Below the pieces are notes generated by a model. The model made no database searches and was not told the origin of the DNA. It was given only the letters and a program-made list of their open reading frames with translations. From positions 1,792,001 through 1,856,000 of the forward strand of contig OZ001293.3 of NCBI GenBank assembly GCA_963921275.4: a stretch of DNA of 64,000 bases, read 5' to 3'. A program made the translations under genes and the position numbers. Below, one piece after another: positions 1 through 45,137 of the stretch (the stretch's first letter is position 1; every line of letters starts with the position of its first letter). This DNA is from an uncultured Hormoscilla sp. (GTDB lineage: Bacteria; Cyanobacteriota; Cyanobacteriia; Cyanobacteriales; Desertifilaceae).

Positions 1-1239
1 TGCCGCCGCATTCAATGTCGCCTCATTCACTCTAAAATTATGTGCGTTCTTAGAGCGGTCAAAAGAGCGTAGCACCATTGCCGTCGTCAGTAGCACCACC
101 ACCAATGACACCATTGTCATTGTCGGCAATACAAAGCCTCTCGTTGCCTGGCCCCGCCTACCTCTCCTTTTCAGTGGATGGGGTCGAGCCGGGAATCGCT
201 TCCCGACCCTCCCTTGAGGAACCGGACTTGCGATTTTCACCGCATCCGGCTACTGGGTACTAGGCCCTTTTCATAGGTAGACTTAATAGGAATTACTTCC
301 GTTAGCCCTTGCCGCCTGTCTTTTCTTCCTTTCCTGGTTTAGCAAGTGGTTGTTCTGATAACCGTTAGTATCACCATTTTCAAGTCAGTTTTACCAGTTA
401 TCCATACCTTATCCTCCACTTGCGTTTCGGATTAGTTCCGTGGCTTTTTAGGATTACTCATTCCAGCAGCTTCCTAGTATCACCGACCCACGTCAGCGCT
501 GGCTACCCAGCATCATCTACATTACTGTAGATGTTATCCCAGGAATTACCCCGGGCATTCGCTTCTTGGGCCATCCCTCCCCCCGTGGCTTGCGCTTAAC
601 ATCTAACTTGTCCTGATGGACAGCACACGAGAGGTTACTTCGTTCCCTAACAACATTTCGCGATACCTTTAGGTCCACACTATACCCCGGGAGCTATTTG
701 AGTACTATATTAGCCAGAGTCTAAAACTAATACTAGCTACCATTTCCTTTTTAGGCCAGCGCATATAGCCTTATTTCGCTGGTTCCTTATAACGAGGCTT
801 GCACATGTTTGCCTGCTCTAACCTTGGATATCTTTCCTAGCGGCGTCACCGGCTTAGGCTGCCAGTTATCCTACATTTGAGTCCTCGCTTAGCACCACGA
901 TGATGTCGCTTCGTAGCACCGAGGACCGGTGTCACCCCCGTACCTGGGGGGAGGGGAATTTAACCCCTATGCGGTCAGAGTTCCCGGCTAATGAAACCGG
1001 GCTAGCGTTCCGTGTTTGACCACGTTAGGCTAGAACGAATCGCACAGACTCCGCCGCAGGTTACCCGCCAACTTTTTGGTCATTTTTTTAGTCAACCTAC
1101 TCAACCGCCGCCACAGCCGAGACAATATGACTTGGACTTTCCCGATTTTTCCGGAACGGTGCATCTTGCCCATGTACCTAGTAGCTTTCCCGAGCGCGTA
1201 GCGTGCGCGCAGCGCAATCTTCCGCTGGATATATGCCAT
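1..1239 (-). CDS. hpsA: Hormogonium polysaccharide biosynthesis protein HpsA, N-terminal part, split by a group II intron (exon 1 1239-1046, exon 2 175 to beyond base 1)
   Basis: Joining 1046 to 175 gives ...KKLAGNLRRSL-LKRRGRRGQATRGFVLPTMTMVSLVVVLLTTAMVLRSFDRSKNAHNFRVNEATLNAAA. The GFVLPT..VSLVVVLL..RSF.R.KNA...RVNE..LNAA pilin-like N-terminus is what I recognise as HpsA. Runs off the window. Confidence 0.75.
176..1045 (-). mobile_element. ORF-less group IIB intron (870 nt) in hpsA
   Basis: Minus strand starts GTGCGATTCGTTC at 1045. Domain V is GTAGCCGGATGCGGTGAAAATCGCAAGTCCGGTTC; the domain VI hairpin ends CTCGACCCCATCC. EBS1 AGACTC (722-717) is fully complementary to the exon end GAGTCT. 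No RT ORF. Confidence 0.93.
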
Positions 1240-7445: not shown

Positions 7446-9634
<2,189 letters not shown>

Positions 9635-12711: not shown

Positions 12712-13067
12712 GATAGAGTCCAATCTCTTTTAGCTTCTTCGATAGTAGCAACTGAAGCAGGAACAACAGCTTGTGCTTCTACTATAGATTGTTCTAGTAA
12801 TTCTAGCATGGCAGGTGAAGCACTGGGATAGGATTCGGCAATCCGTAGTAGGAGTCTCGAAAAACGAGAGTAATAAGTTTGGGCCCGATCTCTAGTATTC
12901 TGGAGGAGATCGAAGTCAGTAATTGCCTCAGGGGTCTCACCATACTGTTCGAGTATAGTATATCCAGTCGAATTGGCTTCATTGATAATTGCCAGCAGCA
13001 GCGGCTGCAAGCTTCAAAAACCTGTGGTGATTTCTACCGTTCCGGAAAAATCGGGTAGCTGGGCTAT
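12708..13067 (-). pseudogene. Hypothetical protein with a damaged 5' end
   Basis: Open from 13010 (QPLLLAIINEA...YGETPEA...). The upstream part has ATA in place of a start codon, a 19-bp dispersed repeat and an in-frame stop. Confidence 0.45.
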
Positions 13068-25166: not shown

Positions 25167-25957
25167 TTTTAATCGATGTCGTCCGGGTTAATTCCCATTT
25201 CGAGTAAACGCTGGACTAATTGTTCAGCCCGTTGGCGTTCATTTTCAGCCCGTTGGCATTCATTTTCAGCCCGTGTTCCGTTTGGGCCTGTTTTTCCAGG
25301 GTTTTGATTTTGGTTTGTTCTTCTTTAATTAATTCCTCCACTAACGGCGGATCGAGCAGTTCTTTTACTGATAAAAATAGCTGCTCAAACTGACCGGAAA
25401 CAATTGACGTATCTTCTGGAAAATCATCAAAACTATATCCTTCTTCCTTGCGAAGATTAGCACAGACTCGAACAACTTTATTTTTCGGGTCTACTATCCA
25501 ATATTCGGGAATTTTCTTCGTATTTATTGCGTTTAATCACATAATATTCCTGGCGATTGCTGCTGACAATTTCTACCAGCATAATTGGCTTTTCATCAAA
25601 ATCAAAAACCCCAGCCCCTGAGCGATCGCTGATTTGCTCCCAAAGACTTTGATGGCAAACGATCGCATCAGGAATTCGGGATGAATTTTCCTCGGTTCTA
25701 ACTCCTACAGTGGTTTTGGCCACCAAAGATAAATTTTGGGCAGCAAAGTAGCGCTGTAACTTGTAGACTAAAAATTCACATATTTTTGTGTGTTCTAGAG
25801 TTGGTGTGGACATCGGTATTAGTTTACCCCTGACTAATTCATAGATAACATCCGGTTCTCCTTCATAGGAGAGATATTCTTGGAAGGTTAACAGATGTTC
25901 CTTTTCTTGAGGTTCATTGATGGCCACCTCCGTTGCTGGGGCGACAGCTTGTGTCAT
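25167..25957 (-). pseudogene. Uma2-family endonuclease, frameshifted tandem duplicate
   Basis: 5' half nearly identical to 26194-27078; frameshift near 25515 after RNKYE and further indels in the 3' repeat region. Confidence 0.85.
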
Positions 25958-26193
25958 ATTCGACCTCCCTTGCGCTCGCGTTCATTGACTATCTTATCTT
26001 AGCTTATTGGACCTCTTGACCGTCAGCACAGTTGGGACGACCAGGTACAGACCTCATTTGCTGCAACACCCTCAACTACCTACAGTTGCGAGGGGTAGTG
26101 CTCCTGATGTAATGATAGCAAATCCACTAACCGTTGTTTCAGTGGGATATAATCATTACTTGTGGAGCGCTACCCTTTGGGAGGAAGGTAATT

Positions 26194-27078
26194 TTAATCG
26201 ATGTCGTCCGGGTTTACTCCCATTTTTAGTAACCGCTGGACTAATTGTTCAGCCCGTTGGCGTTCATTTTCAGCCCGTTGGCGTTCATTTTCAGCCCGTT
26301 GGCGTTCATTTTCAGCCCGTTGGCGTTCATTTTCAGCCCGTTGGCGTTCATTTTCAGCCCGTTGGTGTTCGGTGTCCGCCCGTTGGCGTTCTGAAAGAGC
26401 TTGTTCTTTCAGGGTTTTGATTGTGCTTTGTTCTTCTTTAATTAATTTATCCACCAAGGGCGGTGCGAGCAGTTCTTTCACAGATAAAATTAGCTGCTCA
26501 AACTGACGGGAAACAATTGACTGTTCTGAGGTAAAATCGGCAAGAAAACGATATCCTTCTTCATTGCTAGGATTAGCACAGACCCGAACGAGTTTATTTT
26601 TCGGGTCTACTATCCAATACTCGGCAATTCCAGCCGATTCGTATTCGTTGCGCTTAATCACATAATCTTCCCGGCGATTGCTGCTGACAATTTCCACCAC
26701 CAGAATCGGCTTTTCATCAAAATCAAAAACTCCTGCCCCTGGACGATCGCTTATTTGCTCCCAAAGACTTTGATGGCAAACGATCGCATCAGGAATTCGG
26801 GATGAATTTTCCTCGGTTCTAACTCCTACAGTGGTTTTGGCCACCAAAGATAAATTTTGGGCAGCAAAGTAGCGCTGTAACTTGTAGACTAAAAATTCAC
26901 ATATTTTTGTGTGTTCTAGAGTTGGTGCGGACATCGGTATTAGTTGACCCCTGACTAATTCATAGATAACATCCGGTTCTCCTTCATAGAAGAGATATTC
27001 TTGGAAGGTTAACAGATGTTCCTTTTCTTGAGGTTCATTGATGGCCACCTCCGTTGCTGGGGCGACAGCTTGTGTCAT
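26194..27078 (-). CDS. Uma2-family endonuclease with a C-terminal AENERQR repeat coiled coil
   Basis: SRIPDAIV, VVEIVS, GIAEYWIVDP; 21-bp tandem repeats at about 26245-26390. Confidence 0.92.
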   Translation of the reverse strand: MTQAVAPATEVAINEPQEKEHLLTFQEYLFYEGEPDVIYELVRGQLIPMSAPTLEHTKICEFLVYKLQRYFAAQNLSLVAKTTVGVRTEENSSRIPDAIVCHQSLWEQISDRPGAGVFDFDEKPILVVEIVSSNRREDYVIKRNEYESAGIAEYWIVDPKNKLVRVCANPSNEEGYRFLADFTSEQSIVSRQFEQLILSVKELLAPPLVDKLIKEEQSTIKTLKEQALSERQRADTEHQRAENERQRAENERQRAENERQRAENERQRAENERQRAEQLVQRLLKMGVNPDDID

Positions 27079-28622
27079 ATTCGACCTCCCTTGCGCTCGC
27101 GTTCATTGACTATTATATCTTATCTTAGCTTATTGGACATTTTTCCAGGAAGCCCCAAATACTGTAAACTTCGATCGATGATTTAGGATTGCTAGATGAG
27201 CGGTATTGTCGGTATTCTCAACGGCGACGGTCAACCCATTGACCCCGCCCTGTTACAGCAAATGATGGAGTTGATGGCATTTCGCGGCCCCGATGGCTGG
27301 GATACCTGGAATGACGGTTATGTCGGTTTCGGTCACGCCCTCTTGCGGACTACCTGGGAATCAGCAAAAGAACGGCAACCTCACAGTCTCGATGGGAAAG
27401 TTTGGATTACTGGGGATATCCGCCTGGACTGGCGCGAAGATTTGATTGACCAATTGCGTGCGTCCCGACGGAATCTAGAGAAGGACGTGACGGATGTTGA
27501 CCTGGTTTTGCACGCCTACTAGCTTTGGAAAGATGCTTGTTTGGAACGACTGAGTGGAGATTTTGCCTTTGCTATTTGGGATGGCCCCCAGCAGCGATTG
27601 TTCTGCGCCCGGGACCAGTTTGGGGTCGTACCTTTTTTCTATGCAACAATCGGAAAAAGCCTGATTTTTAGCAATACTCTCAACTGTCTGCGCCTGCACC
27701 CAGAGGTATCGGATAGACTTAATGAAGGGGCGATCGCCGATTTCCTGCTATTTAGCATGAATATGGATATGGCCACGACCACCTTCTTTGCCGATATCCA
27801 AAAGTTGCCCCCCGCCCACACCCTGATTTGGTCAGAGGGCGAGGTGCGCGTCCGGCGTTACTGGCAGTTGCCCGAAGCAGTAGAATACCTGCGTTACCAG
27901 CGCCCAGAAGAATATGTCGAGCAGTTTCGGGAGTTGTTCGAGCGCTCAGTTGCTTCCAGACTGCGAACCAACAGTGCGGGCACTATTTAAGCGGGGGAAT
28001 GGACTCCACCAGTATCGCTGCCACTGCCTATAAATTAATGACAGCAACGGGTTCCCCTGTTGATTTTCGGGCCTACGCGAGTTTCTATAAACAAGTCATT
28101 GCTGACGAGGAAGGGGACTACGCCGCACTGGTCGCTGAGGCGGCGGGTTTTCCTATTGAGTACCTAGTTGTGGAAGACTATTGGCAGCAGCCACCGATCG
28201 AACAACCGGAGTACATCGAATCAGAACCGCTGCTGATTCGCAACCAAAGCGTTGAGATGGAATTGAATCGGCGAGTCGCTGGGCACAGTCGGGTGCTGCT
28301 AGCTGGGTTTGGTGGCGATCCGGCACTTTATCCAGCGCCGTATTCCCAGAATAAGTCGCTTATGCTCAATCCTTTGGGTTACATTCGCTCTCTTCGTGCC
28401 AGGGTGAGGTTACGTACCCGGTTGCGCCAGTGGCTGCGCATAGAGCAGCAAGGGCGGTTCGGCTCCGCTCACCGCGAGCAACAAAAGATTTATTTTCCTG
28501 ACTGGTTTAACCAGATTTCGCAGAACGAGCGAACTTGAAAGCGCGACTGCAAGAAATATTGACTGCGCCACCGCAAAAAGACCGCTACGGAATGGCGACT
28601 GCTCCCTTGTGGTCCAATATTA

Positions 28623-29634
28623 ACTCAAGTTGCGACCTATAAAAATTGGATACAAAAAGCTATGATAAAGAGAATTATTTTCAACTCTAATCCCTTAGAT
28701 GTAACAGCATGAATTGACTTGGGAAACAAATTGGTGATTCGACTAAAACAGGTTTCAACTTGTTTTCTTGTTACTTTTTGTATATATTCAAAACAAGAAT
28801 ATTCTTTTCTTTTTGAGTTCTTTTTTCGCAAAGGTTTTAACATTATACTTGACGACTCTTTTAGTAAATCCTCTAATTGATAATCATTATAAGCTTTATC
28901 TCCATAAACTATTGAATTTGATGGTAAGTCAAAGCCAAAAGATTGCAAAACTTTAAAATCATTATAACTACCAGGATCTAGATAAAATTCTATTGGCTTT
29001 CCATTTTTGTTTACCAACATATGAACTCTTAATCCATAAAAATAACGTTTTTTACTGGCAATATACCCTCGATATTCTTCCTTGTTATAAATTTGGCATC
29101 TATCAATCCTAATATTATCACATACTGGCACCGGGAAACTATCAAGAATATATTCTTGACCCGGATTGAGCTCTTTAAATGTTTGAGCTATAACTTGGAA
29201 GAAAAACATCCAAATTGGTTCCTCAATATTGTGTAATCGACGATTGAACCTACTTTTACTTAACAGATTTTTTATATACTTGTGTTGGACCATAAATTGA
29301 CAAGAGCGATCGTGATGTCCTCCGAAAAAATATGCAGCAACTAATCCGACTGTCATCACTTCGGCATTGTTCATTTTTACTTGTGGATCTTCTTTTATAT
29401 TTAACGCTTTTAGTAGCTCGTCACAAAGAACAAAAATTGTTGTAATCATATCTTCCATCATCTACATCCCCCAGCAATTAACTATTATTTTAGTACATTA
29501 TAACCTATAAACAGCCAACCCGCCGTCTAGCACAAAAAAAATATAATTTTGTATCAAAAGCTACGAAATATCCCAAATATCTGTAAAGTATAAGTGGGTA
29601 ATTCATATTTTTTTTAATAGGTCGCAACTTAGGT
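28623..29634 (-). mobile_element. IS982-family insertion sequence
   Basis: TIRs ACTCAAGTTGCGACCTAT / ATAGGTCGCAACTTAGGT; 7-bp target duplication AATATTA (28616-28622, 29635-29641). Removal restores WSNI-IFAGSDPG. Confidence 0.92.
28637..29461 (-). CDS. IS982-family transposase (apparently intact, 274 aa)
   Basis: SKSRFNRR, ILDSFPVPVC, YFYGLRVH, YGDKAY, RKQVETCFS. Confidence 0.9.
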   Translation of the reverse strand: MMEDMITTIFVLCDELLKALNIKEDPQVKMNNAEVMTVGLVAAYFFGGHHDRSCQFMVQHKYIKNLLSKSRFNRRLHNIEEPIWMFFFQVIAQTFKELNPGQEYILDSFPVPVCDNIRIDRCQIYNKEEYRGYIASKKRYFYGLRVHMLVNKNGKPIEFYLDPGSYNDFKVLQSFGFDLPSNSIVYGDKAYNDYQLEDLLKESSSIMLKPLRKKNSKRKEYSCFEYIQKVTRKQVETCFSRITNLFPKSIHAVTSKGLELKIILFIIAFCIQFL

Positions 29635-30102
29635 AATATTATATTTGCTGGGTCCGATCCGGGCTTCAGTGGCTTTCCTCTTAAAGTTCGCTTTCCGTTT
29701 TTTGATTTGCGTTTGGTGTTATACTTATTGTCAGTGCCGCCAGAACCTTGGTTTGAAAGTAAATTCTTGCTCCGGGAAGCCATGAAAGGCACATTGCCGG
29801 AGTCGGTGCGACGGCGACCCAAAACACCGCTCAGGGGCCGTCCCCGTTATGAATTTGCCAGGCAGCGAGGGGTCGTGCCATGGATGGTAGAACTGGCAAC
29901 TACACCCGCGCTGAGTTATTATGTCAACAGCGATCGCCTGTTGCAAAAAATCAACGCAGTAGAGGAACTCACCCCCGCGAGCTACGATCGAGCGTCATTT
30001 GCTCTGACACTGGCTTACTGGCTGCGCCACCAACGCCGCCCGAAGACCAAGACCAGACCGGTTTGATCGCAAATTTGAAATCAAAAGTAAGGAGAATAAC
30101 CC

Positions 30103-31186
30103 ATGTCTAGAGTAACTAACAACCAAGAGCGTCCATCTAACCAAAAAGATTATCACAGCCCTAAATTGCGGAGTTTCGGCAAGGTTAGCGATCTGACCTT
30201 AACGAATAATCCTGGAGGTGGTTGTGCGATTCGTTCCGGCGTAAACCAGTAATGGTGAAAGTCGGGTCTGGTTCCATTAGCCAGATAACTCTGGTCATCA
30301 TGGGGGTTAAATTCCCCTTCCCCAGGTGCGGGGGTGACACCGGTCCTTAGTGCTGCGGAGCCACATCGCCGTGGTGTGGAGCAAGGACTTAAATGAAGGA
30401 TAAGGTCTCAGCCCAGGGACCGACGCCGCATGGCTGCGCCACGCTGCGCGATCGGAAAGAGGTTCATGGTTAGAACAAGCAAATCCCTGTAAGCATCGTC
30501 ACCACGAACAAGCGAAAAGAGGCTGACACGCTTGGCACAAAATGTGCATGTAGTCCGCGTATCAGTGCTAATCAATCACTGATATCGTACCCGAAACGAC
30601 TGCCGGTGTAGAGGTGAGACCTAAAAGCCTCGTGAAATGATACCAGGGAACGAAGTAACCCCGTGGTGCTGTCCTACCGACGGACAAGTTAGATGTCAAG
30701 CGCAAGCCCACGTGGGAGGGATGTCCTAAGAAGCCAAAGCCTGGGGTAATGCCTAGGATATGCAGACGTAGGACGGATATGGTAAGAAGTTCTGGGAGAT
30801 AGTAGCCCTTAAATGTACTAAACCAGGAGCAATCCTAGGGAGTAATGGTGGATTAAATCCTAACCGGGTAAAAATTCAGAGCCCCAAATATAAGGGACAT
30901 GTAAGTAAAGAGCGGATTTAGTGGTTTACTGGTTTACCCCCGCAAACCTTCCGGAGTTAGGTAGCTAACGGCTCCACGACTGACCATAAGGGGCAAAATT
31001 TCATAGGACAAGGGACAATGGGAGTAATCCAAAAGTTACCTGCCTATGACAAGGGCTTATCAACCAGTAGCCGTGTGCGGTTCCAGTCGCTCTTCAGGTT
31101 TCGCTCTTGGAGGGTTGGTACGTGAGTACCAGTTCGACCCCGACCCCTCTGATGATGGTTTGGGGATCGCGATTTACAATTCCTAA
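30103..31186 (+). CDS. Lasso peptide precursor (53 aa after intron removal; exon 1 30103-30223, exon 2 31146-31186)
   Basis: AAGGAG RBS, directly downstream of the cyclase. MSRVTNNQERPSNQKDYHSPKLRSFGKVSDLTLTNNPGGG-SSDDGLGIAIYNS contains the YxxPxLxxxGxxxxxT leader motif. Confidence 0.8.
30224..31145 (+). mobile_element. ORF-less group IIB intron (922 nt) in the lasso precursor; domain V degenerate
   Basis: Starts GTGCGATTCGTTCC; first ~150 nt nearly identical to the eno intron. EBS1 AATCAA (30570-30575) pairs 5/6 with GTGGTT. Domain V reads TAGCCGTGTGCGGTTCCAGTCGCTCTTCAGGTTT; ends TTCGACCCCGACC. Confidence 0.92.
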
Positions 31187-31199
31187 CAGCAAAATCTGA

Positions 31200-34100
31200 A
31201 TGCCTTATCAACCAAAAGTCAGCAAGCCCATGCCCAGAAGGATTCTGTTGGCGAATTAGCTGGGGAGCTAACAGCTAGCATCGGTTAGGTTTTGGCAGCA
31301 TGCAATAGAGCCCCAAGCGCAGTTAATTCTGCCAGCAGCTGACGGTACAGGAACCCAAGTCACCCCCAAAGGCAATCAATTAAACATTCACGGAGGTCAG
31401 CTATCCAGAGATGAAGCAAATCTGTTCCACATGAGAAATTTAACCTCAGTGAAGGATAGATAGCCAACTTTCTGGCGAACCCCAATATCCGCAATATTTT
31501 GGGGCGAGTTACAGGGGGCGAAGCATCCATTATTAATGGCTTAATCCAAGTTACAGGCGGTAACTCCAACCTATTTTTACTCAACCCAGCAGGGATTATC
31601 TTCGGTCCCAATGCCAGTCTGAACGTGCCAGCTGCCTTCATCCCCACCACAGCTACAGGAATTCGCTTTGGCAGACAGAACTGGTTCAATGCCGAAGGGG
31701 ACAAGAATTGGTCTGAGTTAGTGGGAAACCCCGACTTCTTGAGGTTTAACAGTAGGAGTATAGAAAGTTTTCTCCAACAAGGGATTCTGAGAGTTAGGCA
31801 AGGAGAGGCTTTAATCGTAGAAACGCCAAGAGGGGCGATCGAATTACAAAAAGTTCCTGGTGAAAACTTAGTCCGCATCACAGCTAAAGGAAGCAGACTG
31901 AGTTTAGAGATTCCACTATCAGACTTTTATGACTCTCAGCTTTCCATAGGACGACCTCAGCAGTCTCTCCCGAAATTGCTGACTGGCGGCAGAGTTAACC
32001 GTCATGCTGACAAGGTAAGAGTTAATGAAAATGGACAAATAGCATTAACTGGTTCTGGTATTTCAGGAAGACAAGAACCCTTTGCTGTGAGGGAAGTAGA
32101 ATCGCGAAGAGTACCAGTCATCATGTCGGAGTTCCCGAAAAACATGGCTGACGATCCCGTTATGGATACAGAACTCCGCTCAGGTGGGAGGCGTTCTGAG
32201 ATGACCAAACCATCTTCGGCAGAAATGAGTTCGCGCCCAAATAACATTAATAATCTAGACCGTAGCGCCCGTACAATTGATAGAGAACCTATTCTATTTA
32301 TCCCAGACATGAGGGATTCAGATTACTTATTGAGGCAGGACAGAAGTATTAGCGATCGCATCCGTCCGAGGCAGCAGCATGAGAGAGGAGATCGACATCG
32401 ACAAGGTGCTGGTTTGGGGATAACCAGACTACCAGAAATTATCGACGGCCAGATTAATATTCCTAAATTAGACCGTCACCCCCGTCAAATAAATAAACAA
32501 CCTATCCCATTTTATGCGGAATCACTGCCATTTGAGGCAGTTGGTGACTTCATTAACCGCAATGCTAACGATGGAACAGTAGAATTAACGGCAATTCTCA
32601 TAATCTTACCTAAATTATATTTCTTGGTCGAGGCGAACGAGATTGGTAATGTCGGCGAAATATTCAATCAATCTAATAGAGAAACTGTCCCATTTACTGC
32701 CGATCGAGCGATATCATTGCCAAGACTTAACTTGAGCAACAGTCAGGTTAACAACGAGACAGTTTCTCTTCAATGATAATCAGGATTGACGGTTTCTAGG
32801 ATACCCGAAATACTTGAATATGGAAGTGAAAATATTGTATTTTATAATGGCAGCAAAGTGACAAGCGTTGATAATCTAGACAATAGTTACCGTCAATTTA
32901 ATGGAGAATTTGTCCCCTTTATCGTCAGAGGCTACCCCGCCACAGAAGCAACTGATCGGGCGTCTCTTAGGAATTCGGGCAAGCTGGCATCCAAAATTGA
33001 AGTGCGAGTGAGTGCTACAGAAATAAGCAATAGACTGAACCTCAGCAATCCTGAGATGGGAATAATGGAAATAGAAGGACTCTGGAGTAACCAATTCATG
33101 AATTACTTTGGAGAAAAGATTCCGGAAATAAAAACATATACCAGTATTAAAGAGATGCTGGGTAAAATAGAAAAGCAAACAGGACAAAAGCCAGCAATTG
33201 TTTATGCGATAGCCTCACCATAACAATTAACAATGATGGCAGTTTTTCCAGGCAAAACTATAGTCAAAAGCGTCCCAGTCAGAAAGAACTGCTCAGAACA
33301 GCAAGAGAATTTCGCACCTTGGTTAGCAATCCTCGGATCGAATTCTACAAGCAATCAGCCCATAAACTCTATAATTGGCTAATAAAACCCATAGAAAACC
33401 AGCTGCAAGCCGAAGGAATCAACACCCTAGTGTTCTCCCTAGATGCAGGATTACGCTCATTACCCTTAGCAGCTTTACATGATGGGCAAAAGTTTCTAGT
33501 AGAAAAATATAGCATCTCCCTGATACCATCAGTGAGTTTAACCGATGCTAGCTATAGCGGACTAGAAAATACCCAACTATTGGCAATGGGAGCATCAGAA
33601 TTTACCAACCAACAAACCCTGCCAGCAGTGCCAGTAAAATTAGCAGCGATCGCCTCCATCTGGCAAGAAGACAAAACCTATTTCCTCAACCAAGAATTCA
33701 CTCTCCCTAATCTTAAGGCTCAGCGCCGCCAACATCAGATCGTACATTTAGCAACCCATGCCGACTTTCGCGATCGGGACTATTCCTTCATCCAGTTGTG
33801 GGACACCAAGCTAAAATTAGAGCAACTCAGGGAATTAAAATGGCACGAAAGCTCAACAGTAGAACTATTAGTATTAAGTGTTTGCCGTACAGCAATTGGA
33901 GATGAAGAGACAGAATTAGGCTTTGCCGGGTTAGCAGTACAAGCAGGAGTAAAATCAGTGCTAGCCAGTTTATGGCTAGTCAGCGATGCAGGCACCCTAG
34001 GTTAATGACAGAATTTTACCAGCATCTGCGTTCCACACTCATCAAAGCCACCGCCCTACAGCAGGCGCAAATAGCCATGATCGGAGGAGAAGTGAAGCCT

Positions 34101-42982: not shown

Positions 42983-45137
42983 ATGGGTGGAGGAATTTAT
43001 CTGATTCAGGATAACGACCAGCTAGTTGAAATGACAGAACAACCCTATGAATCGGAAGAAAGACTGCAAGAACTGCTGGAAAAATATCCTAACCTCTTGG
43101 CAGGAGACCAGATAGATAGAGCAACGCCGAGACGATGGTTGTTAATCTCACGAGAAGTAAAATTACCTCTGGAAGAGGATAGCAATGAACAATGGTCTCT
43201 GGATCATTTGTTTGTGGATCACGATGCAATTCCGACCCTGGTGGAAGTCAAGGGGAACAGCAATACTCGCATCCGGCGAGAAGCGATCGGTCAGATGCTC
43301 GACTACGCTGCAAATATGATCGTTTACTGGCCAGTTGAGTCAATAGTTAGCCAGTTTGAAGCAAATTGTAAGTCTCAGGATAAAGATCCCGAACAGGTAT
43401 TTGAGGAATTTCTCGGGGTTGATGCTGACGAAGAGAAGTTTTGGCAAAAGGTCAAAACTAATCTGCAAGCGGGAAAACTGCGTCTTGTCTTTGTCTCAGA
43501 TGAGATAGTGGCGGAACTGCGGCGTGTGGTGGAGTTTCTGAATGAAAAGATGGACCCGGTAGAAGTATTGGGAGTGGAGATTAAGCAATACGTGAGTGCG
43601 GAGGGTCTAAAAACGCTGGTTCCCAGAGTGATTGGTAAGACAACAGAAGCGCAGCAGAAAAAATCCAGTGCGACTCTGGAGAGAAGACGCTGGGACGAAG
43701 TCTCATTCTTTCAGGAATATCAAGTTAGACAAGGTCCAGATGAAGCTCAGATAGCTAGAAAGATATATGAATGGGCTAAGAGCCAAAAAACATTAGTGGA
43801 AGTTCAGTGGGGTACAGGAGACACCTATGGCGGGTTTGTTGTTTGGGTGTCGGAAGAACCCCGATCGGCTTCTGAGCTGTTCCAGGTGGGGATTAATGGC
43901 AGACTACAGGTATCCTCTAGCACCTATGCAGCCTTCCCACAATTTAATAGTAATGAAAAATGGATGGAACTGAGAAGTAAACTGAGTGTCATTGGTCTGT
44001 CCCTGCCGATATCTCCTACTGAAAGAAGATTGACAACTTTTCAGTTGTCTAATTGTTTGCAGGATGAATTTGCCCTGGGGCGGGTGAATTAGGGGTCGAG
44101 CTGGGAATCGCTTCCCAACCCTCCCTTTCGAACCGTGCATGCGGTTTTCATCGCACACGGCTACTGGTTAGTTGGACCTTGTCATTGGCAGGATTACTGG
44201 GGATTGCTCCCTTTGTCCCTCTTCTTATGCAGTTTTTCCCCTTTATGGTAGTCGATAGGACTGTTTCGTATCTAGCTCCGGAAGGTTCGCGGGGGGTATC
44301 CAGGAAACCACTTATACCGCTCTTTGCTAACATTGCCCCTGTCTCGTCATTAGGGGACTTTTCAAGTTTTACCCGGCTAGAGTTTTAGTCCATATTACAA
44401 TCTAGGATTTCTCCTGATTTTTGGTACGTATTAGGGATACTTCCACCCAAGATTTCCAACTATATCCGACCCACGTCTGCCGGTACATTCCTGCACCACT
44501 TATACAAGGAGTTACCCCTGTCCTTTGCTTCTTGGGCCATCTCTCTCCACATGGCTTACGCTTATCATCTAACTGGTCCCTATCTCCTGACCACCGGTCG
44601 ATAGTCGAGTAGTTATGGACAGCACACGTGGAGTTACTTCGTTCCCTGGTATCATTTCACGATGTTTTTAGGTCCCTGCTTTACCCCGGGAGCTACTTTG
44701 AGTGTGATGTTGGCCATATGCAACAGCCAACACTAGCTACCATTTCCTTTTTAGGCCAGCGTGTAAGCCTTCTTCCGCTGGTTACACATAACGAGGCTTT
44801 CACAGATTCGTTTTCCTAACCATGAGCATCTTTCCTAGCGGAGTTGCCGACTTTGGGCTGTCAGCTATCCTACATTTAAGTCCTTGCTCCGCACCACGGT
44901 GATGTCACTCCGCAGCACTAAGGACCGGTGTCACCCCCACACCTGGGGAGAGGGAATTTAATCCCCATGATGACCAGAGTTACCATATTGAGCCTGATTA
45001 TGATTAGTTTTGGTTCTAAACATTCAGTCCAATTTTGGCTCGGCTTTTCCGTGTTTGTACAGGTTAGGCCGAAACGAGTCGCACTACAAACTTTTGATTG
45101 GGTGGTTGAGCAAATCTTACCTTCATCAGAGGCGTAG
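42983..45137 (+). pseudogene. PD-(D/E)xK (NucS-like) nuclease-domain protein; last 18 codons cut off by an antisense intron
   Basis: ESEERLQELL, LDHLFVD...LVEVK, GQMLDYAA. The ORF now stops at 44092; removing 44088-45084 gives ...ALGRV-IQTFDWVVEQILPSSEA*. Confidence 0.7.
44088..45084 (-). mobile_element. ORF-less group IIB intron (997 nt), antisense to its host gene
   Basis: Minus strand starts GTGCGACTCGTTTC. Domain V GTAGCCGTGTGCGATGAAAACCGCATGCACGGTTC; ends CTCGACCCCTAAT. EBS1 TGCATA pairs 5/6 with TTTGTA. Confidence 0.94.

Follow-up and report, generated by a model that had tools for sequence, protein, structure and literature searches.

The window analysed here is a 64,000-nt stretch of DNA from an uncultured Hormoscilla sp. 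(assembly GCA_963921275.4, contig OZ001293.3, forward-strand positions 1,792,001-1,856,000). It holds a lasso-type cyclase pseudogene that carries an insertion sequence and is followed by a short peptide-precursor gene, the start codon of which lies 36 nt past the cyclase stop. The precursor gene itself is divided into two exons by an ORF-less group II intron (Table 1).

The leader encoded by exon 1 contains YHSPKLRSFGKVSDLT, which reads as Y-x2-P-x-L-x3-G-x5-T on direct inspection, and continues into ...LTNNPGGG, the start of the core. Left unspliced, the reading frame enters the insert and stops at a TAA at 30250-30252, and the resulting 49-aa ORF exists as a called protein (P0001) in a large protein collection. 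Joining 30223 to 31146 in silico instead yields a TCC codon, 12 further codons and a TAA stop, which amounts to a precursor of 53 aa ending in ...IYNS. Specifically, exon 2 carries both candidate acceptor Asp residues together with the C-terminal Ser, the latter being encoded only once the intron is removed. Upstream of the cyclase, two paralogous Uma2-like endonuclease ORFs with identical N-terminal 28 residues occupy 25478-27078 on the reverse strand, and one of them has a C-terminal ENERQRA heptad repeat array.

Table 1 Features of the cyclase-precursor locus, in window coordinates
Feature	Position	Strand	Details and basis
Lasso-type cyclase (asparagine-synthetase-like) pseudogene	27196..30066	+	NF033535 pieces; tblastn with the L045 ortholog
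IS982-family insertion sequence	28626..29631	-	within the cyclase; transposase ORF 28637-29461
Shine-Dalgarno-like TAAGGAG	30088..30094	+	8 nt upstream of ATG 30103; direct reading
Precursor exon 1	30103..30223	+	40 codons and base 1 of codon 41; ends ...NNPGGG
ORF-less group II intron	30224..31145	+	922 nt; repeat copies, sharp ends, EBS/IBS, excision tests
EBS2 CCACG	30502..30506	+	pairs 4/5 with IBS2 CCTGG at 30211-30215 (-13..-9)
EBS1 loop TAATCAA	30569..30575	+	stem 30563-30568 / 30576-30581
Domain V	31069..31100	+	AGC triad, four basal pairs and distal helix present; middle helix unpaired
Linker and domain VI hairpin GGTAC / GTACC	31101..31145	+	3' tail ends ...CGACCCCGACC
Precursor exon 2	31146..31186	+	bases 2-3 of codon 41 (Ser), 12 codons SDDGLGIAIYNS, TAA 31184-31186

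Boundaries of the insert

The insert opens with GTGCG at 30224, where the DNA reads GTGCGATTCG, and contains no ORF above 55 aa. A BLAST search of 30224-31145 against its own genome (7.03 Mb in 7 contigs, 96.7% complete) returned 76 matches, including two full-length copies at 99% identity and some fifteen further full-length copies at 73-82%, with some copies nested within others. The ends of the element were fixed from 19 aligned copies, each taken with 45-nt flanks. All 19 start with GTGCGA and end in ...CGACCCCGACY, and their flanks are unrelated up to both ends. Across about 922 alignment columns, the window copy differs from its two twins at only 7 and 8, and the three copies sit at unrelated sites.

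Two kinds of evidence decide to which side of the 3' boundary the last pyrimidine belongs. When it is counted as intron, five of 18 copies (C1:71496, 848632, 1555490, 3237170 and 5897864) regain upon excision a frame that extends 45 aa or more to either side without a stop, as opposed to none of the 18 under the alternative. One of the twins (C1:6613968-6614890), furthermore, splits a CHAT-domain gene between ...KYAVGLI and PSFSLTD..., and an uninterrupted CHAT paralog within the window (33319-34005) reads KYSISLIPSVSLTD, matching the joined exons of the twin. Because both lines place the last pyrimidine within the intron, the element spans 30224-31145. Treating this base as a 3'-exon IBS3 would give a product ending ...GGGSL, with the homologous tail out of frame, and is ruled out by the same excision tests and paralog. 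As such, the coordinates, the 30223/31146 junction and the 53-aa reconstruction that had been proposed by an earlier, sequence-only reading of this DNA turn out to be correct.

Contigs from three of four sequencing runs (X1, X3 and X4) provide error-free pieces over 29650-30247 and 31116-31450, which contain the same exon-intron junctions. A direct 30223-to-31146 joint does not occur in the contigs of the four runs (their kind is unrecorded and they were read as DNA), which break inside the repeat and are uninformative on an intron-free allele or on splicing. Elsewhere in the genome, a family member with a canonical domain V (G000:C1:848632-849545) splits a very long ORF into parts of 112 and 1050 aa; by eye, this ORF resembles an intein-containing ribonucleotide reductase, in which case two kinds of intervening element would share one gene.

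Group II intron features and a variant domain V

The guide sequences of the intron and their targets change together. At -13..-9, where the window copy has the IBS2 listed in Table 1, the twins carry CGTGG (5/5 pairs) and TGTGG. The EBS1 loop pairs at 5/6 positions, one G-U pair included, with IBS1 GTGGTT (30218-30223), and at 6/6 positions with the IBS1 of one twin, TTGATT. A second subfamily has in the same alignment columns the EBS1 loop TTGCACG and the EBS2 TCTTA, and its eight targets read TAAGA at -13..-9 and end in GTGCA, GGGCA or GCGCA at -5..-1. The EBS guides therefore co-vary with the sites into which the copies are inserted.

The 3' end of the element is less regular. An alignment with canonical copies gives the middle helix of domain V, with 3' strand TCTTCA at 31091-31096, one of four pairs, and the window copy thus lacks the continuous helix with 2-nt bulge of a canonical domain V. 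RNAfold favours a competing hairpin in which this stretch pairs with the beginning of domain VI, and predicts the domain VI hairpin at 31115-31132. Alternative domain V pairings, in shifted registers or with the upstream AACCAGUAG strand, were not convincing. Rfam model RF00029 has no match in the window copy, either at the gathering score or at E <= 10, and a D1-D4 match at 30303-30406 is weak (E 0.09). Applied to eight loci of the family, RF00029 gives only two matches, both within other elements. A relative that is 74% identical over the last 135 nt does match RF00029, at 47.9 bits (L012:962-1039). Since a domain V/VI match is missing from the window copy itself, its identity as a group II intron rests on homology, EBS/IBS pairing and the excision tests. 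Together with the GTGCG start, these bear out the group II assignment of the sequence-only reading. The window has three further domain V/VI matches that exceed the Rfam gathering score, at 178-254 (reverse strand), 9058-9136 (forward) and 44088-44165 (reverse), which belong to other lineages.

The irregular domain V is not confined to the window. Among 206 domain V-like sites genome-wide, 155 form the complete set of four middle pairs, whereas 51 have the unpaired block, a TC-TTCA or TTTA stretch on the 3' side of the middle helix that occurs with varied 5' strands and loops and also in copies that have spread recently. The 164 motif-paired ORF-less copies divide into 111 with a canonical, 34 with a variant and 19 with an unmatched domain V. 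Carriers of the variant include the window copy and both twins, each with matching IBS1 and IBS2, and also a group of eight copies that are nearly identical to one another yet occupy eight different sites. A further variant copy interrupts a 393-codon response-regulator/PP2C gene that is otherwise intact. The genome also contains 116 matches to the group II reverse transcriptase/maturase model TIGR04416 at E <= 1e-10; 44 of these exceed the cut-off, 38 of them without an internal stop.

These data bear on the strongest rival explanation, in which the intron copy is catalytically dead and the precursor gene was disrupted by a fossil element and never read through. Such a reading would account for the non-complementary block in the middle helix, the missing RF00029 match and the predicted competing hairpin. 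It has to contend, however, with the presence of the same variant at a quarter of the domain V sites and in one otherwise intact host gene, and with its occurrence both in three 99%-alike copies at unrelated sites and in the group of eight. An intron can spread by reverse splicing only if its ribozyme is active, and the dispersal of variant copies to many sites thus speaks against a dead intron. We consider this rival a real contender, although somewhat less probable than its opposite. The breadth of the variant across sites, the twins, the eight-copy set and the intact host gene make it more likely that the variant domain V is active than dead, and it may represent an active variant, one that is rescued in trans or an off-state.

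A precedent for small introns that depend on others comes from Thermosynechococcus elongatus, in which maturases of related introns, such as the TeI4 'driver', both mobilise ORF-less TeI3 introns and splice them (Mohr, Ghanem and Lambowitz 2010, PMC2882425). As far as the consulted part of that report goes, the elements described here are likewise small ORF-less introns derived from ORF-bearing ones. They differ from TeI3 in their far higher copy number, in the large share of domain V sites with an unpaired middle helix and in the location of the window copy inside a peptide-precursor gene.

Precursor relatives and the ring register

The leader places the split gene among lasso-peptide precursors. 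Of 401 genomes sampled across the phylum, 13 encode a cyclase over the cut-off of NF033535 ('lass_lactam_cya'), and 12 of these 13 cyclases are directly followed, on the same strand, by small ORFs with the leader motif, one to three per locus; the remaining locus, L022, has no leader-motif ORF downstream. Across all fetched loci the motif is common to 92 ORFs adjoining lasso-type cyclases. The precursors of G318 and G344 are 46-53% identical to exon 1 over 35-36 residues, and a homology search of the protein collection with exon 1 as query retrieved nothing beyond the 49-aa ORF of the window itself.

Closer relatives came from searches of public genomes. A piece of the cyclase retrieved L045, from a Prochloron sp. 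MAG (96% aa identity), L046, from a Nodularia MAG (82%), and L047 (78%), and the exon-1 peptide retrieved L125, whose genome belongs to the same family, and L126, a locus identical with L034. All five have the order cyclase, intronless precursor, HPr-kinase-like gene. Their precursors of 54-56 aa align with the ligated 53-aa product over its whole length, the leader also aligning with many distant precursors, and they end in ...GIYAS, ...QYAS, ...NVYAS, ...NNYAS and ...YVAAGS, compared with ...AIYNS in the window. Thus all five terminate in Ser, with Y-A-S in four of the five and Y-N-S in the window. The full-length alignment and the shared C-termini indicate that exon 2 is the genuine 3' part of the gene. 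Given the few columns that separate the window copy from its twins and the intronless state of the five closest relatives, the insertion is recent and lineage-specific.

The cluster around these precursors is most complete in L046, which encodes a B2 protein that exceeds the NF033537 cut-off of 33 bits (91.2 bits) and a PqqD-type B1 that stays below its own cut-off (E 1.9e-17), along with an NTP_transf_5 gene, an ABC exporter and a methyltransferase. The orthologous cyclases score 367-380 bits on NF033535, under its 525-bit cut-off, and these scores place them as a sister group of the curated family, not as members. They share with the NF033535 loci the fold family, the downstream same-strand precursors and the leader motif. 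Unlike the curated members, however, the cyclases of L045-L047, L125 and L126 match only the N-terminal ~375 model positions, and the precursors of the window lineage end in Y-A-S.

Two observations concern the relatives themselves. L045 (7497-8832) has an intact cyclase, a precursor with a 1-nt frameshift after ...LRKF and a kinase in the form of two overlapping ORFs, which would reflect either early decay there too or assembly errors. The relatives' clusters also contain a 114-aa ORF 3' of the kinase, of which this genome has three paralogs at 39-56% identity (window about 12714-13067 on the reverse strand, C1:4748047-4748388 and C1:6533799-6534137), one of them near ABC-transporter genes at 4.745-4.752 Mb.

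The gene content resembles that of the known phosphorylated lasso clusters, namely those of paeninodin (PadeK), ThcoK, SyanK and pseudomycoidin (PsmK/PsmN), in which an invariant C-terminal Ser is phosphorylated by the kinase on the precursor (PMC9266682). Compared with what the consulted part of that source describes, the window precursor shares the Thr-containing leader end and, with the intron removed, the C-terminal Ser, and the ortholog clusters share the HPr-kinase-like, nucleotidyltransferase-family, ABC exporter, split B1/B2 and asparagine-synthetase-like cyclase genes. Differences lie in the order of cyclase, precursor and kinase, in the methyltransferase and unknown genes that the relatives add, in a conserved Asp that is two residues farther from the aligned leader Thr, and in the fact that the present genome retains only a broken cyclase and an intron-split precursor.

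This last Asp raises the question of the ring register. Taking T(-2)L(-1) from DLT makes the core begin TNNPGGG..., with its Asp residues at 10/11, whereas a -2 assignment of the second Thr, two residues on, moves them to 8/9. In all six subfamily members, the Asp of the Asp-Gly(-Gly) motif lies at 10-11 in the leader-aligned register and at 8-9 in the shifted one, in which the second Thr or Ala is -2 and four of the six cores open with Pro. When the 92 leader-motif ORFs are read in the leader-aligned register and acceptors are counted from position 7 on, the first one is found at 9 in 62 ORFs, at 7-8 in eight and at 10-12 in 20, and two have no acceptor up to position 12. The range given for lasso ring acceptors is 7-9 (PMC9266682, in the part consulted). 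On the basis of the aligned precursors, the register would be compatible with either Asp 8/9 or Asp 10/11 and is best called ambiguous. Under both, the intron precedes the acceptor Asp and falls within the ring-coding part.

The position of the acceptor Asp at 10-11 in the leader-aligned register is one of the points that might suggest that the small ORF is no lasso precursor and serves instead as the substrate of another maturation system built on an asparagine-synthetase-like enzyme. The sub-threshold scores of the cyclase orthologs on NF033535 would fit such a scenario, as would the searched literature (titles and the beginnings of abstracts), in which no characterised product of this cyclase subfamily was found. 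We nevertheless regard it as very unlikely: the leader motif is the one shared by the 92 ORFs beside lasso-type cyclases, L046 encodes a B2 over its curated cut-off together with a PqqD-type B1, and the kinase and nucleotidyltransferase set is that reported for phosphorylated lasso peptides (PMC9266682, in the part consulted).

The identification as a lasso precursor, which the sequence-only reading had proposed, is thereby upheld by the ORFs downstream of the curated cyclases and by the five intronless relatives. Homologs with a different C-terminus, or a cyclase that groups with non-lasso enzymes, would have spoken against it, and neither was seen, the best NCBIfam match of the cyclase being the lasso cyclase model. 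Intronless counterparts, which it had suggested seeking in related cyanobacteria as intact alleles, occur at five loci, with B2 and a PqqD-type B1 in L046, and the placement of the intron inside the ring-coding region holds in either register.

Decay of the cluster and its meaning

The cyclase is recognisable only in pieces. These match NF033535 at E 1.4e-30, 1.9e-44 and 5.7e-8 (106.5, 152.3 and 31.8 bits, all below the curated cut-off of 525 bits), ahead of the asparagine synthase models. Measured by tblastn against the intact 607-aa ortholog of L045, the gene has four lesions: a TAG at about 27523-27525, frameshifts near 27966-27996 and 28511, and the IS982 element. The latter has terminal inverted repeats of ~20 nt at 28626 and 29631 and is absent from the L045 gene, and its transposase matches NF033520 (transpos_IS982) over the cut-off (E 3.1e-58, 197 bits).

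No second copy takes the place of this gene, as the window cyclase is the sole such locus in the genome. The B2 model has no match anywhere in the 96.7%-complete assembly, and neither NTP_transf_5 nor the kinase (one query, the kinase of a relative) has a match in the genome. A tblastn search with six cluster proteins (two L045 kinase pieces and the L046 kinase, B1, B2 and nucleotidyltransferase) likewise returned nothing from the genome at E <= 1e-3. Downstream of the precursor stop lies an unrelated, frameshifted TPS-domain gene. The missing genes and the unrelated downstream DNA therefore indicate that the cluster is truncated and decayed. The downstream region itself (31290-34005) consists of the frameshifted TPS (two-partner secretion) domain gene followed by a CHAT-domain fragment. 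Judged by its gene content the locus is dead, with the reservation that at 96.7% completeness a missing gene is not absolutely excludable. The sequence-only reading had called the locus probably dead on the strength of the window, and the lesions in the cyclase and the searches for B1, B2, kinase and nucleotidyltransferase extend this verdict to the whole genome.

That the locus is still in use, with the intron spliced and the 53-aa peptide either matured by unlinked or unrecognised enzymes or acting unmodified, is the least probable of the alternatives and can practically be set aside: the joined exons are stop-free and the ribosome-binding site is kept, although 53 codons tell little of selection, and against this stand a sole cyclase-like locus that is broken four times, B1, B2 and kinase genes that were not found in the genome, and neighbouring genes that are pseudogenes as well.

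The available data are most compatible with a model, to which we assign a probability of roughly 85%, in which the locus is the remnant of a kinase-associated (paeninodin-type) lasso cluster whose precursor was hit by one of the genome's ORF-less group II introns and which is now dead. According to this model, a precursor gene of 53 codons lay directly 3' of the cyclase, as is usual for this cyanobacterial lineage. The 922-nt intron would have retrohomed into it by reverse splicing from the large intron population of the genome, its EBS1 and EBS2 loops partly matching the Gly-rich stretch ...CCT GGA GGT GGT T. If spliced, presumably with the help of an intron-encoded maturase from elsewhere in the genome, the transcript would encode a complete precursor that has the Asp-Gly and the C-terminal Tyr-x-Ser typical of the family. 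Without splicing, translation would run through nine codons of intron before ending and would yield a product devoid of the acceptor Asp and the tail. In either case, no lasso peptide would be made today, because the cyclase is destroyed and genes for the leader-binding protein, peptidase, kinase and nucleotidyltransferase were not found.

A more far-reaching version of this model holds that a splicing-competent intron entered the precursor while the cluster still worked, such that the ring-forming part was encoded only after splicing. It would further imply that intron-rich cyanobacteria may hide live split precursors and that the rings of the Y-A-S subfamily may close on Asp 10/11 or start at Pro. 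We consider this combination improbable.

A search of the literature, covering titles and the beginnings of abstracts, found no report of a group II intron within a RiPP or lasso precursor gene. Novelty lies solely in the combination, with a group II intron interrupting the core of a peptide precursor. The case is a well-supported curiosity and not a working system, a rating that follows from the dead locus and from a genome saturated with such introns. Where well over a hundred of these elements are present, it is unsurprising that one has landed in a single 160-nt gene, and because the cluster is dead the practical consequence here is nil.

Beyond this locus, two by-products of the analysis may outweigh the main finding in worth: a large set of introns whose domain V is non-canonical and which have seemingly spread nonetheless, and a cyanobacterial lasso subfamily with a conserved Asp outside the textbook register. 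The split gene itself carries a lesson for the discovery of peptide natural products, where the short precursor genes are harder to detect than anything else in a cluster. It shows that where a bacterial genome is rich in introns, one such mobile element can conceal the functional half of a precursor gene, and since the gene caller gives only a truncated 49-aa ORF at this site, those who mine cyanobacterial genomes should look across group II introns.
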